Shown: positions 3,178 to 59,397, numbered from the stretch's first letter. The stretch: DNA of 59,397 bases from Chitinophagaceae bacterium (GCA_017998385.1 JAGODE010000001.1:26457-85853), one strand, 5' to 3'. A program made the numbers and translations. The notes: a model not told the origin generated them from the sequence alone.

Positions 3178-5634
3178 TCAGTTACCCGCACGCTGGCGTT
3201 CTTCTTCCGAACCGGTGCTGCGGCGGCGCGCCTGCTGTACCTTATTACTCCCAAAGCGATAGGTAAAACTGATTGTAGCCACACGTGTTTCCCGCTGCGC
3301 ATGCCATCTTTCCACATAGTTGTCGTACGTGATAACGGCTTTGGGCAGGTTGGTCCAGAATATATCGGTAATATTTGCCCGTATAGTGGCTTTGTTTTTC
3401 CAGAGGCTTTTCTGAATACCCGTTGATAGGGCCCATTGCGGATCCATTACCATAAAACCATACTGACCGCCTGTATTAATTTGTCCATTCAACTCAGCAG
3501 TCCAGCCTTTACCCAGCGTAAAAGTGTTGTTTGACTGAGCATTCATGGCTGGTCGTCCTTTACTTAACCGGGTCACACCCAGGCTTCCATTGAATTTTTC
3601 ATAATAGATATTACCATTGTTGAGCATATTCCACCACTTGCTGATGCGAACCGGGGCCGAAAAACCAACACCGAAATAATCAGATGATCGGAGGTTGATC
3701 GGTATCTGAACCGTTACATTGCCAGGGGTTGGTATATCGGGAAAGACATCAGCAAAACGTGCAATGGCAATATTCTGGTTGTTTTTGGTGCGGCTGTAGG
3801 CAAGCGTGAAGTTGAGGCTTTTCACGGTATAGCTCCACTCGTACGACCAGGTAAGCTGTGGCAGCAGTCCGGGACGACCCGTTGCATAGGTCGTTACATC
3901 GATCAGGAACAGAAATGGGTTGAGCTGTGAATAACCAGGCCGGTCAATGCGGCGGCTCACAGAAAAACCAATGGTTTTTTCTTCGGCAAGGTGCCAGTTG
4001 GCAAAAGCGCTCGGAAAAAGCTGCAGGTAGCTGGAATCCCAGCGCACATCGCCCTGCGCCTGGCGTGTGCGCACATTGGTTTGCTCGCCACGCAGACCAA
4101 GCTGCAGATCGAGTTTGCCAAAACCCTGTTTCCAGTTTATATAGGCTGCATTATTATTTTCATCGTAATAAAAATGATTGGTCTTATTCACGTCGTTTTC
4201 CGGTGTTCCGCTGCTCATATCAAAAAACCGGGCATCGTTGTCGGCAGAGACAAAGCTGAGTTTAAAGCCTGCCTCGAGTTTTGCCTTACCGATTGATTGT
4301 GTATAATCGCTTTTTGCGGTAAAAAAGCGCAGCTTGCCGGTTTGATAGCCATCCAGAATATAATCAGGCTGCTGGCTGGAACCATCCAGTTTATAATACT
4401 GTGTAGCCGTACGGGCATAGGAGGAAGAATTGTATTGTCCGTAATCGAGATCGGTGGTGATCTCACGGCCGGTACTGTCAAATGTATGTTTGAGATTAAA
4501 GTTGGCCACCCAGTTTGTTCCCTTATCGCGGTTACCAGCCTGCGTATTAAAAGTACTGCTGGGTTGTTTTTGTTCGTCGATCACAACGGATTCATTGTCG
4601 TTGCTGCGGCGAAAGCGATTAAAATTTCCATTTACAACAACACCGATAATAGTTCGCTTGCTGGCAAAAATATCGAGGCCCATCCTGCTGCTATGCGTAT
4701 TGATAAACGATTTGGTAAAATTGTCTTTCTTATCCTGGCCAATGAACAATCCGTTGTCTGTATAAAAATTACGGTCCAGGAAAAGATGGTTGAGTCCTAC
4801 ACGATAGGCATAGTTATAATTACCATACAGATTAATCCGCTTATTTCTGTAATTGAATGTGATGCCGCTGTTGGCTTTGGGGTATACCCCCTGTCCGTAC
4901 CCTGCGGTCACTGTGCCATTGACACCATATCGCTGGTCTTTTTTCATCCGTATATCAATGATACCGGCATTGCCGGCAGCATCGTAGCGTGCAGAAGGAT
5001 TGGTAATTATATCAATTCGCTCAATGGCCGATGTAGGGAGGCCGCGCAGATAATTGGCCAGATCCTGTCCGCTCATGGCTGTCGGTTTTCCATCAATCAT
5101 AATAATTACGCCGGCTTTGCCACGCAGGCTGATCACATCGTTGGGATCTACATTTACGCCCGGCGAGCGCTCCAGCACTTCCATAGCAGAACTGCCGGCA
5201 TTTACAATGCTGTTATCAACATTTACCACAAGTCTGTCACTAAGTTTCTGAATAAACGGTTTGCGTCCTGAAACGGTGACTCCGGCCATTTCTTTACTTT
5301 GTTTTATCAGTTCCACAGGTGCGGGTTGCAGTGTGCCGGCATCTGGCAGGGCAGGAAGTTTAACCAGCCTGGTCTGATAACCGATTATGGCTGCGCGAAA
5401 CAGGTAATTACCCGCAGGCAGCCCGTCAAAAAGGGCTGTGCCGGTGGCATCTGTCACGGCTATTTTCAACAAACTGCTGTCTGCTTTCAGCAACTCTACG
5501 GTGGCTGCTGTCAATGGTTGGGCCTGCTCATTCTGCAGCTTGAGAATAATCCTGGCAGAAGGCTGCTGTGCCTGCAGGCAGGGAGAAGCCGCTAACAATA
5601 ACAAAAGGGTACACAATGCTGAAATCCTGTTCAT
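3178..5634 (-). CDS. TonB-dependent-receptor-like outer membrane beta-barrel protein with an N-terminal carboxypeptidase-regulatory-like domain
   Basis: Signal peptide MNRISALCTLLLLLAASPCLQAQ from the internal ATG at 5634. Plug-like segment VISLRGKAGVIIMIDGKP. Long Y/N/G/T-rich beta-strand region ending ATISFTYRFG. Confidence 0.8.
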   Translation of the reverse strand: MNRISALCTLLLLLAASPCLQAQQPSARIILKLQNEQAQPLTAATVELLKADSSLLKIAVTDATGTALFDGLPAGNYLFRAAIIGYQTRLVKLPALPDAGTLQPAPVELIKQSKEMAGVTVSGRKPFIQKLSDRLVVNVDNSIVNAGSSAMEVLERSPGVNVDPNDVISLRGKAGVIIMIDGKPTAMSGQDLANYLRGLPTSAIERIDIITNPSARYDAAGNAGIIDIRMKKDQRYGVNGTVTAGYGQGVYPKANSGITFNYRNKRINLYGNYNYAYRVGLNHLFLDRNFYTDNGLFIGQDKKDNFTKSFINTHSSRMGLDIFASKRTIIGVVVNGNFNRFRRSNDNESVVIDEQKQPSSTFNTQAGNRDKGTNWVANFNLKHTFDSTGREITTDLDYGQYNSSSYARTATQYYKLDGSSQQPDYILDGYQTGKLRFFTAKSDYTQSIGKAKLEAGFKLSFVSADNDARFFDMSSGTPENDVNKTNHFYYDENNNAAYINWKQGFGKLDLQLGLRGEQTNVRTRQAQGDVRWDSSYLQLFPSAFANWHLAEEKTIGFSVSRRIDRPGYSQLNPFLFLIDVTTYATGRPGLLPQLTWSYEWSYTVKSLNFTLAYSRTKNNQNIAIARFADVFPDIPTPGNVTVQIPINLRSSDYFGVGFSAPVRISKWWNMLNNGNIYYEKFNGSLGVTRLSKGRPAMNAQSNNTFTLGKGWTAELNGQINTGGQYGFMVMDPQWALSTGIQKSLWKNKATIRANITDIFWTNLPKAVITYDNYVERWHAQRETRVATISFTYRFGSNKVQQARRRSTGSEEERQRAGN

Positions 5635-56718: not shown

Positions 56719-58983
56719 ATGGCAACATCTACAGTTAAAAAATCCGGCTCACGTAAGCCGGCAAAGGTTAAGGAATCTGATTCTGGTAAAACTCGTTTCG
56801 ATCTGCACGAAAAATTACAGGAGTATTTTGGATTTGATAAGTTTAAAGGCACGCAGGAAAAGGTTATAGAATCCCTGTTGGCAGGCCATGATACATTTGT
56901 GATCATGCCTACCGGTGGCGGTAAAAGCCTTTGCTACCAATTGCCTGCTATGGTGAGCGAGGGTGTTGCGATTATCGTTTCGCCGCTTATCGCGCTGATG
57001 AAAAACCAGGTTGACCTGGTCCGCAGTTATAGCAGTAATGATGAGGTGGCGCACTTTCTGAATTCCACCCTTACCAAAAGGGAAATAAAAGAAGTGCATG
57101 ACGACCTGCTGACGGGTAAAACCAAGATGTTGTATGTGGCGCCGGAAACGCTTACCAAGCAGGAAAACCTGGAGTTCTTCTCTGATCTCAAAATTTCTTT
57201 TTTTGCAGTAGACGAAGCCCATTGTATTTCTGAGTGGGGCCATGATTTCAGACCGGAATACCGCCGGTTACGTGAAATGATGGTTCAGATCAATCCCGAT
57301 ATACCCGTTATTGCCCTTACCGCTACCGCTACTCCAAAGGTGCAGAGTGATATCGTAAAAAATCTGGACCTGCGTGATCCCAATATATTTATTTCTTCTT
57401 TTAACAGGCCCAATCTTTATTACGAAGTATTACCCAAAATAAAAAAGGCACAAACAGATGAAAGTATTGTGCGGGTTATAAAAGGAATGGCTGGCAGGAG
57501 TGGTATTATATATACCCTCAACCGCAAGACCACAGAGGAAATGGCCGATCTGCTGAATGCAAATGGAATAAAATCTGTAGCCTACCATGCGGGTCTTGAC
57601 AGTAAGCTGCGTGCCGAACGCCAGGACCTTTTTCTTAATGAAGAGGTGCAGGTGATATGCGCTACCATTGCCTTTGGTATGGGAATCGATAAACCAGATA
57701 TCCGGTTTGTGATTCATTACAATATTCCCAAGTCGATTGAGAACTATTACCAGGAAACTGGTCGCGCCGGTCGCGATGGACTTGAAGGACGCTGTATCCT
57801 TTATTATTCACACAAGGATGTAAGCAAGCTGGAACACCTTATGCGCGATAAGCCGCTTAGCGAGCGGGAAGTTGGTGCCCAGCTGATTAACGAAACCGTA
57901 GCCTTTGCCGAAGCAGGAGTGTGCCGCCGTAAGGTTTTGATGAGTTATTTTGGTGAAGAGTACGAGAAGGAAAATTGTGGTGAGTGTGATAACTGTAAGC
58001 ATCCGAAGGAGAAAATTGAAGCCAAAGAGGATGCTGTCGTTGTGTTGAAAGCGATTCGCGCACTCGATGAACGCTTTGCTACAGATTATGTGGTGCAGAT
58101 CATCGGAGGCAGGCTTACTCCTCAGATACAGATGTTCCGGCACGAAGGGCTGGAAGTATTTGCCAGTGGAAACGATAAAGAGCCTCATTTCTGGAATTCT
58201 CTGATAAGGCAGATGCTGCTGGATGGCTTGCTGAGTAAGGATATAGAGGAGTACGGTGTATTGAAGTTTACAAAGAAAGGTGAGGCGTTTCTGAAAAAGC
58301 CCAAATCGTTTAAGATAGTCCTCAATAATCTTTATGAAGAAGCCAATGCCGATGACGAGGAAGGTACAGAAGCAAGTACTGGCGGGGCTACTGACGAGAA
58401 GCTTTTTGAAATGCTTAAGGAGCTTCGTCAAAAAGAGGCAAAGAAAAAGAATCTGCCTCCTTTTGTGATTTTCCTGGAAACATCGCTGCAGGACATGGCA
58501 ACGCTTTATCCAACTACAGTGAGTGACCTGGAAAAGTGTCAGGGAGTTAGTAAAGGCAAGGCGATTCGTTATGGTAAGCCATTTGTTGAGATGGTTGCCC
58601 GTTATGTAGAGGATAACAATATTGTAAAGCCCGACGATTTTGTGATGAAGAGTGTGGTGAATAAGAGCGGGAACAAGGTATATATTATCCAGAACACCGA
58701 TAAAAAGGTAAGCCTGGAGACAATTGCCCGCAATAAGGGGTGGCGTATGGACGAGATGCTGGAGGAGATGGAGACTATTGCCGCCAGTGGTACCAAGCTT
58801 AACCTCGATTATGCAATCGATGAAATGCTGGACGAGACTGAGCAGGATGAAATCATTGAATATTTTAAAGGATGTGATACCTCCTCGCTGCAGGTAGCGC
58901 AGGAGGAACTTTCTGAGCATAATTTCAACTGGGAGCAGTTGAAAATCATGCGGATCAAATTTTTGAGCGAATACGGCATGTAA
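56719..58983 (+). CDS. recQ: ATP-dependent DNA helicase RecQ
   Basis: FGFDKFKGTQ, PTGGGKSLCYQLPA, DEAHCISEWGHDFRP, a zinc-binding Cys cluster CGECDNC, and an HRDC-like region. There is a basic ~25-aa N-terminal extension. Confidence 0.95.
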   Translation: MATSTVKKSGSRKPAKVKESDSGKTRFDLHEKLQEYFGFDKFKGTQEKVIESLLAGHDTFVIMPTGGGKSLCYQLPAMVSEGVAIIVSPLIALMKNQVDLVRSYSSNDEVAHFLNSTLTKREIKEVHDDLLTGKTKMLYVAPETLTKQENLEFFSDLKISFFAVDEAHCISEWGHDFRPEYRRLREMMVQINPDIPVIALTATATPKVQSDIVKNLDLRDPNIFISSFNRPNLYYEVLPKIKKAQTDESIVRVIKGMAGRSGIIYTLNRKTTEEMADLLNANGIKSVAYHAGLDSKLRAERQDLFLNEEVQVICATIAFGMGIDKPDIRFVIHYNIPKSIENYYQETGRAGRDGLEGRCILYYSHKDVSKLEHLMRDKPLSEREVGAQLINETVAFAEAGVCRRKVLMSYFGEEYEKENCGECDNCKHPKEKIEAKEDAVVVLKAIRALDERFATDYVVQIIGGRLTPQIQMFRHEGLEVFASGNDKEPHFWNSLIRQMLLDGLLSKDIEEYGVLKFTKKGEAFLKKPKSFKIVLNNLYEEANADDEEGTEASTGGATDEKLFEMLKELRQKEAKKKNLPPFVIFLETSLQDMATLYPTTVSDLEKCQGVSKGKAIRYGKPFVEMVARYVEDNNIVKPDDFVMKSVVNKSGNKVYIIQNTDKKVSLETIARNKGWRMDEMLEEMETIAASGTKLNLDYAIDEMLDETEQDEIIEYFKGCDTSSLQVAQEELSEHNFNWEQLKIMRIKFLSEYGM

Positions 58984-59023
58984 AACCGAAAAATCCTGAT
59001 TATTTCACTGTTTTTTTCGGTTT
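58984..59023 (+). terminator. Possible terminator after recQ (long-loop hairpin)
   Basis: ACCGAAAAA...TTTTTCGGT, a 9-bp stem with a ~19-nt loop, followed by TTTC. Confidence 0.4.
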
Positions 59024-59038
59024 TCTAAGGAATCAGCC

Positions 59039-59046
59039 TATATTTG
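59039..59046 (+). promoter_or_regulatory. -7 promoter box TATATTTG upstream of tRNA-Phe
   Basis: Exact TAnnTTTG, 39 nt upstream of the mature tRNA 5' end. Confidence 0.45.
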
Positions 59047-59084
59047 CAGCCCGCATTTGACTTTGTGTCAAATGATTAAAGGAT

Positions 59085-59157
59085 GGTGCGGTAGCTCAGT
59101 CGGTAGAGCAAAGGACTGAAAATCCTTGAGTCGGCGGTTCGATCCCGCCCCACACCA
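59085..59157 (+). tRNA. tRNA-Phe (anticodon GAA)
   Basis: Hand-folded cloverleaf: acceptor GGTGCGG/CCACACC (one C-A mismatch at 5-68), D arm GCTC-AGTCGGT-AGAGC, anticodon arm AAGGA-CTGAAAA-TCCTT, T arm GGCGG-TTCGATC-CCGCC, discriminator A. CCA is not encoded. Confidence 0.9.
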
Positions 59158-59397
59158 CAGAAGCCTGTTACAAAAGTAGCAGGCTTTTTTAATGCATGTA
59201 ACTGCCATTATGGATGGTAAAAGCGGAAGAGTTCTTAGTCGGCGGTTCGATCCCTCCCGAAGCCTCGGGACCACACCACAGAAGCCTGTTACAAAAGTAG
59301 CAGGCTTTTTTAATGCATGTAACTGCCATTATGGATGGTAAAAGCGGAAGAGTTCTTAGTCGGCGGTTCGATCCCTCCCGAAGCCTCGGGACCACAC
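59158..59397 (+). repeat. Tandem 121-bp units (at least 2; cut by the window end), each comprising a terminator, spacer and degenerate tRNA-Phe-like segment
   Basis: 59158-59278 and 59279-59397 are identical over the visible length. Each unit retains GGATGGT (the tRNA 5' flank and first three nt), GTCGGCGGTTCGATCCC (T arm) and CCACACCA (acceptor 3' strand). Confidence 0.9.
59162..59190 (+). terminator. Intrinsic terminator after tRNA-Phe; an identical copy lies at 59283-59311
   Basis: AGCCTGTTA-CAAAAG-TAGCAGGCT (9 bp including one G-U) followed by TTTTTT. Confidence 0.8.

Follow-up and report, generated by a model that had tools for sequence, protein, structure and literature searches.

A tandem array of hairpin-bearing partial tRNA-Phe copies in a Chitinophagaceae bacterium and its possible kinship with GIY-YIG/tRNA cassettes

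The right end of the window, by which we mean the whole 59,397-nucleotide stretch of Chitinophagaceae DNA analysed here, carries a real, non-coding tandem array whose units are degenerate copies of the 3′ part of tRNA-Phe. On balance we think it probable, with considerable room for error, that this is an ORF-less, eroding member of a set of GIY-YIG/tRNA cassette arrays and that unequal recombination has reshaped it. By itself the array would be little more than a curiosity: like E. coli tyrT, the tRNA gene here is followed by a string of defective copies. It matters chiefly as a pointer to GIY-YIG genes beside tRNAs; these genes are usually accompanied by a conserved hairpin of 14-16 nt and by a partial duplicate of the adjacent tRNA.

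The intact tRNA-Phe gene and its 121-bp units

The intact tRNA-Phe (GAA) gene lies at 59085-59157 on the plus strand, where the Rfam tRNA model RF00005 scores 69.5 bits (E=3e-15); ARAGORN, placing it at 59085-59158, calls it as the one tRNA in the whole 59 kb. The agreement of these programs upholds the initial annotation, which had described an intact tRNA-Phe here together with its terminator. That intrinsic terminator (59159-59190, plus strand), apparent from the sequence and its fold, consists of a 13-bp stem with an AAAA loop and a T6 run. The upstream neighbour is a recQ helicase gene of 754 aa (56719-58983, plus strand, by ORF call), and gene-order comparison finds the recQ–tRNA-Phe order to be common to Chitinophagaceae loci; the recQ orthologue in an outgroup described below (L204) has DEAD, Helicase_C, RQC and HRDC Pfam matches. 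The sequence TATATTTG (59039-59046, plus strand) fits TAnnTTTG, the Bacteroidota −7 promoter consensus, and judging by this match it is likely a Bacteroidota-type −7 element that drives tRNA-Phe. The tRNA-Phe leader is 93% conserved relative to the sister species introduced below, compared with 67% at neutral sites.

Tandem Repeats Finder delimits a repeat of period 121 at 59150-59397 (2.0 copies, 100% matches), which runs up to the last base of the window. Visible within it, all on the plus strand, are one complete pseudo-unit of 121 bp (59191-59311), supported by the repeat call, the sequence and its fold, and 86 nt of a second (59312-59397), which is cut by the window end and equals the first over that length. 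The complete unit opens with a 47-nt spacer (59191-59237). Next comes GTCGGCGGTTCGATCCC (59238-59254), which corresponds to the variable loop, T-stem 5′ strand and T loop, and after it a 16-nt hairpin, TCCCGA-AGCC-TCGGGA (59255-59270). The unit continues with CCACACCA, the 3′ strand of the acceptor (59271-59278), and closes with a terminator copy (59280-59311). This copy is identical to 59159-59190 and folds as a 13-bp stem followed by U6. Compared with tRNA-Phe, 18 nt stand in for the 41 nt of the D and anticodon arms (59088-59128), and the 16-nt hairpin takes the place of the T-stem GCC (59147-59149). The heptamer GGATGGT recurs at 59081, 59212 and 59333, the 18-nt segment AAAAGCGGAAGAGTTCTT at 59219 and 59340, and the hairpin TCCCGAAGCCTCGGGA at 59255 and 59376 (its second copy spanning 59376-59391); the chance expectation for such matches is 0.03-0.05.

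These positions bear out most of what the initial annotation had proposed, namely the 121-bp period with its GGATGGT spacing, the exchange of the D and anticodon arms for 18 nt, the placement of the hairpin in the 3′ half of the T stem, and the derivation of the units from the tRNA-Phe locus with retention of GTCGGCGGTTCGATCCC, the acceptor strand and the terminator. Its further suggestion, that each unit reuses the 5′ flank and the first 3 nt of the tRNA, holds only in part: the match is present at these coordinates, but it is weak (shuffle p=0.07) and confined to this genome, the units of the sister species having a spacer unlike the 5′-flank-like spacer of the window.

Both ends of the window bear the mark of its assembly. 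At the right end the repeated stretch is 248 nt long, which equals the 121-nt period plus 127, and the final 127 nt are a second copy of the 127-nt segment beginning 121 nt earlier. At the left end a perfect tandem repeat of period 106 occupies positions 1-233 (2.2 copies), and 233 is again 106 plus 127. A length of period plus 127 at both ends is the signature of a k=127 loop, meaning that both contig ends stop in unresolved repeats, and we infer that the window is the whole contig of a k=127 de Bruijn assembly halted in a loop at either end. The identity of the copies, and their number beyond at least two, are therefore uninformative, and variants may have been collapsed; descriptions such as "identical copies" and "at least twice" reflect assembly limits rather than biology. 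For the same reason, we do not retain the earlier reading of the two copies' identity as a sign of recent amplification or selection.

A contig that ends in a repeat, with this k-mer loop signature, might also suggest that the locus holds a single copy which assembly has multiplied. We reject this artefact as scarcely credible. At least two adjacent pseudo-units are indicated because the loop is closed by 127-mers joining one hairpin to the unique 5′ part of the next unit, and such a 127-mer would require two pseudo-units side by side. Multi-unit arrays also occur in independent assemblies of relatives, some of them apparently long-read, and it is the homologous units carried at the same locus by these independently assembled relatives that establish the array as real. 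In attempts at contig extension, two Logan contigs from SRR11088469 were found, one with window genes (L203) and one with a 275-aa gene that probably lies downstream (L206); both end before reaching the array, and an exact look-up of the window RecQ returned no match. Separately, five contigs from metagenome assemblies (L022, L026, L057, L060 and L020) end inside the tRNA-Phe gene, as fits repeats or strain variation at this locus.

The pseudo-units are not functional tRNAs. We counted as a tRNA any cloverleaf scoring above 29 bits with the RF00005 covariance model, or any ARAGORN call; neither ARAGORN nor Rfam at E values up to 10 matched the units, and the tRNA-model scan that had been suggested as a check thus singles out the real gene at 59085-59157. 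The tRNA family is the only Rfam family found in the window, in one further locus (L023) and in ten cassette loci, and an Rfam scan of 58900-59397 at E up to 10 gave no match to RtT RNA (which we take to be family RF00391). No promoter-like element is visible in the window spacer. With a strong terminator in every unit and no visible promoter, short read-through transcripts are the most that would be expected. An exact search for the window-specific junction, across one genome per GTDB species, found no match. We also considered and rejected a coding role: neither the 49-aa ORF at 59192-59341 nor the minus-strand ORFs of 68 aa show conservation, stops interrupt each of the three frames in the sister units, and the period of 121 is not divisible by 3.

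The T loop is a common crossover region for tRNA-targeting integrases, and the tRNA homology of the units starts near it. This, together with the several metagenome-assembled contigs that break at tRNA-Phe, could be taken to mean that tyrosine-recombinase islands once inserted at the tRNA-Phe 3′ end and that the units are the att sites they left behind as scars. As in the duplications that island integration leaves at tRNA 3′ ends, a 3′ part of the tRNA is duplicated beside an intact gene. The resemblance stops there. The units are contiguous 121-bp tandem repeats with no island between them; the terminator and the 47-nt spacer are repeated as well, beyond the tRNA 3′ segment, and a hairpin takes over part of the T arm. 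The integrase that the initial annotation had advised looking for did not appear among the downstream genes of relatives, which encode DUF2306, SET-domain and ATP-grasp proteins, and the core unit has no match in viral contigs, phages or plasmids. We therefore reject the integration scars as very improbable, in keeping with the earlier judgement that these are not ordinary att sites.

Homologous units and their conservation in related species

Most Chitinophagaceae relatives have a single tRNA-Phe and no array, including three with 94-95% identity in the RecQ C-terminus. The sister species, "Sphingobacteriales bacterium 46-32" (L081/L082), has four diverged units of 108-109 bp at the same recQ–tRNA-Phe locus, where a 2.2-Mb metagenome contig and the GTDB genome of that name have the same sequence. 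Its RecQ is 98.7% identical to that of the window at the protein level, and four-fold degenerate sites are 67% identical. Each sister unit consists, in order, of a spacer, GGTTCGATCCC, TCCCGAA(A/G)CCTCGGGA, then CCACA(C/G)CA or CCAATGCA, and a terminator. Our terminator scan detected all five terminators at this locus, that of tRNA-Phe and those of the four units (0.9 expected); it missed the homologous hairpins of the window because its stem extension uses up the T run.

A more distant outgroup (L204/L205), with about 52% identity at four-fold sites, has one eroded unit in which the hairpin 3′ arm and the terminator are broken. Past this unit lies a decayed full-length pseudo-tRNA-Phe and then the same downstream gene. 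In L204 this pseudo-tRNA-Phe, at 4940-4990 on the minus strand and distal to the eroded unit, has a normal D arm; the D arm of the real tRNA-Phe there reads GGTAAAGC, either a real change or a long-read error. The contig of a fourth relative (L207) begins inside a unit. The hairpin-bearing unit is thus older than the window, sister and outgroup species. Copy number among the three is one in the outgroup, four in the sister and at least two in the window species; the initial annotation had proposed looking for such variation among strains, and the differences between species bear out the recombination hot spot listed there among the alternatives.

Parts of the unit differ in how well they are conserved between window and sister. 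The spacer is 54-57% identical with a 12-nt gap, about the neutral level, while the T loop and hairpin match at 26-27 of 27 positions and the trailer and terminator at 28-33 of 33. Across the window and the four sister units, the 27 nt of T loop and hairpin are invariant except for one loop base; variation is greatest in the T-stem 5′ strand and the acceptor strand. For the hairpin alone, a binomial comparison with 67% neutral identity gives p values of 0.002-0.016. Gene conversion by the adjacent real gene could homogenise the T loop and the terminator; the hairpin has no donor for such conversion in the real tRNA-Phe. Within the window/sister clade the hairpin shows no compensatory change, owing to too little variation. 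A hairpin that is conserved here yet eroded in the outgroup, and that lacks covariation within the clade, leaves the evidence on constraint mixed.

Between loci, including those described in the next section, the hairpin stems differ in a compensatory manner (TCCCGA/TCGGGA, TCCCGC/GCGGGA, CCCCGA/TCGGGG and TCCGCC/GGCGGA), such that the inner stem changes among GCC/GGC, CGA/TCG and CGC/GCG and the outer TCC..GGA is kept. Compensatory stem changes of this kind point to a structure, of RNA or single-stranded DNA, rather than a fixed sequence as the conserved feature.

These observations bear on whether the units might be functional small RNAs derived from tRNA, each with a T-loop-like element and a hairpin and each ending at its own terminator. 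Such RNAs could act as decoys or regulators for a T-loop-binding factor, or as antidote-like mimics for a tRNA-directed nuclease. The near-invariance of the T loop and hairpin against 67% at four-fold sites, the compensatory stems and the presence of a terminator in every window and sister unit would all fit. Several features argue otherwise: the window spacer lacks a promoter-like element and follows a strong terminator, the clade shows no covariation, the hairpin stem and terminator have eroded in the outgroup, and the units have no Rfam match. The T-stem 5′ strand and the acceptor strand, both needed for a tRNA-like fold, are moreover the parts that vary most. We consider a functional small RNA unlikely, though deserving of serious attention.

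GIY-YIG ORFs and hairpin-bearing tRNA copies at other loci

About a fifth of the recQ-linked tRNA-Phe loci that we fetched have extra tRNA-Phe-derived pieces. The pattern GTGCGGTATCCGCC-N2-4-GGCGGAAAAGGA, derived from these pieces, recovered 40 stretches from about 38 species genomes, all of them Bacteroidota or Chitinophagaceae, and in nearly all of these stretches the match adjoins a tRNA-Phe gene. The loci share a common architecture. A leader of zero to three units of ~40 nt, each a tRNA 5′ half with its D arm replaced by TCCGCC..GGCGGA, precedes the real tRNA-Phe and its terminator; in the tandem units that follow, an ORF of 90-96 aa precedes a variant or partial tRNA-Phe, and the same terminator is repeated at the end. 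A GC hairpin stands in for the D arm, the T loop or both in the tRNA-Phe copies of the ORF units. The complete chromosome L097, for example, contains four such units of 365 bp, each combining ORF, variant tRNA-Phe and terminator. At several loci, the terminator copies match the genome's own tRNA terminator. Among cultured bacteria, Niastella soli, Longitalea arenae, Terrimonas sp. R1 and Flavobacterium poyangense carry arrays of this kind.

The cassette ORF encodes a GIY-YIG catalytic domain (Pfam E=2e-15). Depending on the genome, its tail enters the variant tRNA in differing frames or stops before it, so conservation of the hairpin is not due to coding. Two Chitinophagaceae loci (L004 and L079) have the ORF, then GGCGGTTC[CCCCGA..TCGGGG]CCGC(G/C)CCACACCA, then a terminator; the partial tRNA here bears the window's kind of hairpin in its T loop. 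Another Chitinophagaceae locus (L109), also at tRNA-Phe, has an ORF-less array of about 12 units of 124 bp, each with a variant tRNA-Phe and a terminator.

Leader units were seen individually in L023 (relative positions -83/-41), L018 (7603/7646), L109 (relative positions -116/-77/-38), L098 and L120. These loci have one to three such units of 39-42 nt between the promoter and the real tRNA-Phe, each comprising the acceptor 5′ strand, TCCGCC..GGCGGA and the anticodon-arm 5′ strand and loop, that is, a tRNA 5′ half. Two other leaders, in L011 (6862-6957) and L012 (6906-7023), consist of tRNA-Phe nt 1-19, a D-loop insertion of 39-60 nt and then TAGAGCAAG; the hairpin of the insertion is TCCCGA..TCGGGA in L011 and TCCCGC..GCGGGA in L012, a compensatory difference.

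Searching species genomes with an alignment of the cassette ORFs, we found at least 494 relatives in Bacteroidota, Patescibacteria, Ignavibacteria, Chloroflexi and others. Eighty loci from this search (L123-L202) were taken, 60 of which were scanned for tRNA genes. A same-strand tRNA gene lies within 900 bp at 49 of the 60; it is most often Met, and Phe, Ser, Arg, Asn, Cys, Leu, Val, Ile, Ala, Pro and Gly also occur. The hairpin pattern TCCGCC-N2-4-GGCGGA is present on the same strand in 51 of the 80 loci, against about 0.03 expected by our own estimate, and usually lies 20-40 nt after the GIY-YIG ORF.

Three loci from this set resemble the window in particular ways. In Flavobacterium poyangense (L131), a tRNA-fMet and its terminator are followed by two units, each running from a GIY-YIG ORF through GGGCTCATA, a hairpin and a T arm plus acceptor 3′ strand to a further copy of that terminator. 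In a Lewinellaceae locus (L141), GIY-YIG ORF units are interspersed with at least eight units of about 120 bp that lack the ORF; structurally, the window's array has its nearest counterpart here. In Christiangramia (L157), the T loop TTCAAATC of the partial tRNA after the ORF is changed to TTC[TCCCGACGAATCGGGA]TC, and the hairpin type of the window thus recurs in a different family and a different tRNA.

Relation of the array to the cassettes and to known systems

The window shares its unit layout and its hairpin type with these ORF-bearing arrays. Its units are tandem, on the same strand and placed straight after an intact tRNA and terminator; each contains a partial tRNA copy in which a loop region has become a GC hairpin, and each is closed by a copy of the tRNA's own terminator. 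Units homologous to the tRNA 3′ part plus terminator occur, furthermore, in three related species. What the window lacks is the GIY-YIG ORF itself: tblastn found none in the window's 59 kb, nor in 8 kb surrounding the array of the sister species. Because bona fide arrays also contain ORF-less units (L109, L141), this absence lowers the case for the window's membership without excluding it. Other observations weigh against membership. The spacers have no significant likeness to GIY-YIG ORF 5′ ends (p=0.89 and 0.97) or to hairpin-bearing tRNA 5′ halves (p=0.25 and 0.48), so that neither a remnant of the ORF nor a decayed 5′ half was accepted as their source. The hairpin of the window clade also lies 6 nt further 3′ than in ORF-linked examples, and the conservation of its T loop and hairpin above the neutral level could mean function.

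If the array does belong with the cassettes, its history might be pictured as follows. A cassette would duplicate part of the tRNA and its terminator, so that the real tRNA stays intact. The resulting direct repeats of 60-70 bp would drive unequal recombination and gene conversion, which would expand, shrink and homogenise the array and could delete the ORF. The cassette itself would spread or persist by a homing-like process, on the model of SegB of phage T4 (PMC2330249).

A simpler account would make the array plain local debris, in which tRNA-Phe and its terminator were duplicated, decayed and were amplified by slippage, with no link to GIY-YIG cassettes. The decayed full-length pseudo-tRNA-Phe that the outgroup keeps distal to its unit is in keeping with this, as is the weak resemblance of the window spacer to the tRNA's own 5′ flank (p=0.07), and the distal repeats of E. 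coli tyrT/tyrV offer a parallel. Left unexplained are the occurrence of the same hairpin type in the T loop of ORF-adjacent partial tRNAs from other families and of other tRNA identity and the arrays that mix ORF-less with ORF-containing units (L141). We judge such debris to be distinctly unlikely, and continue to favour an eroding cassette array.

Tandem tRNA-derived repeats distal to a tRNA gene are known at E. coli tyrT/rtT (PMC3318445), and the passage there that cites Bosl and Kersten 1991 has rtT RNA encoded by one of the tyrT distal units. In K-12 (L083, 1286700-1287240), we find the tyrT/tyrV distal repeats to be 178-bp units (3.1 copies, 95% identity), each of which combines a T-arm-like piece, CGACCAAGGTTCGACTCGAGCG, with a hairpin-rich insert and the 3′ end of tRNA-Tyr. 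The tyrT locus (rttR / rtT RNA, tpr) and the window are alike in having tandem units downstream of a tRNA gene, with a tRNA 3′ end in each. This likeness is one of layout only, with no sequence or Rfam relationship, and both the host phylum and the tRNA differ. By eye, the tyrT units have no evident intrinsic terminator of their own, and they hold the small ORF tpr, whereas the window units have terminators and no conserved ORF.

Phage T4 provides a second comparison. The GIY-YIG gene SegB lies inside the T4 tRNA cluster, and the protein cleaves the tRNA gene region of a related phage, thereby driving inheritance of its own region (PMC2330249). The ORF-bearing cassettes likewise place a GIY-YIG gene among tRNA genes, and by analogy SegB is a plausible model for their spread and for the duplication of tRNA parts. 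SegB is, however, a phage protein, whereas the cassette ORFs are chromosomal, about 90 aa long and limited to the catalytic domain; a search of viral contigs found neither the GIY-YIG protein nor the hairpin-bearing tRNA-Phe 5′ motif. Unlike SegB, moreover, the cassette ORFs are accompanied by a hairpin-bearing partial tRNA and a terminator copy, and the window itself is ORF-less.

From these sequence comparisons we tentatively propose a broader class, which we hold to be possible while doubting it somewhat more than we credit it: small, catalytic-domain-only GIY-YIG genes, predicted to encode nucleases, may colonise tRNA genes across phyla. Their route into these genes, in Bacteroidota, Patescibacteria, Ignavibacteria, Chloroflexi and others, would be the duplication of a tRNA segment together with the terminator, and the window's array may be one glimpse of the class. 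In the duplicate, a conserved hairpin, UCCGCC..GGCGGA or UCCCGA..UCGGGA, would occupy the position of the D loop, of the T loop or of the anticodon/variable region, and the regions so replaced would mostly be those that form the tRNA elbow. ORF-less arrays would then be relics, or else selected copies that are nuclease-resistant or serve as decoys. The literature searched, whose coverage is incomplete, contained no published description of a chromosomal, tandem arrangement of a ~90-aa GIY-YIG gene, a tRNA and a hairpin, and we provisionally regard the class as undescribed.

Tandem GIY-YIG/tRNA arrays break short-read assemblies. Were they selfish cassettes of the homing type, they would be a common, overlooked source of pseudo-tRNAs, of tRNA gene duplication and of contig breaks at tRNAs, as well as of small nuclease genes annotated without their context. 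Were the hairpin-bearing tRNA copies functional RNAs, they would represent a new kind of tRNA mimic.

Two further observations concern the hairpins of the wider family. As DNA, the commonest form, TCCGCCGCGGCGGA, seen at many loci, is perfectly palindromic, and within it lies CCGCGG, the sequence at which Cfr42I, a GIY-YIG restriction enzyme, cuts (PMC2241918); since the hairpin loops vary in other copies, this match may be a coincidence. The same form occurs in L145, where two variant initiator-like tRNA-Met copies (229-305 and 764-839), each upstream of a GIY-YIG ORF, carry TCCGCCGCGGCGGA in place of the anticodon-stem 3′ strand and variable loop. With scores of 32-38 bits under the Rfam tRNA model, these copies can be annotated as tRNAs.
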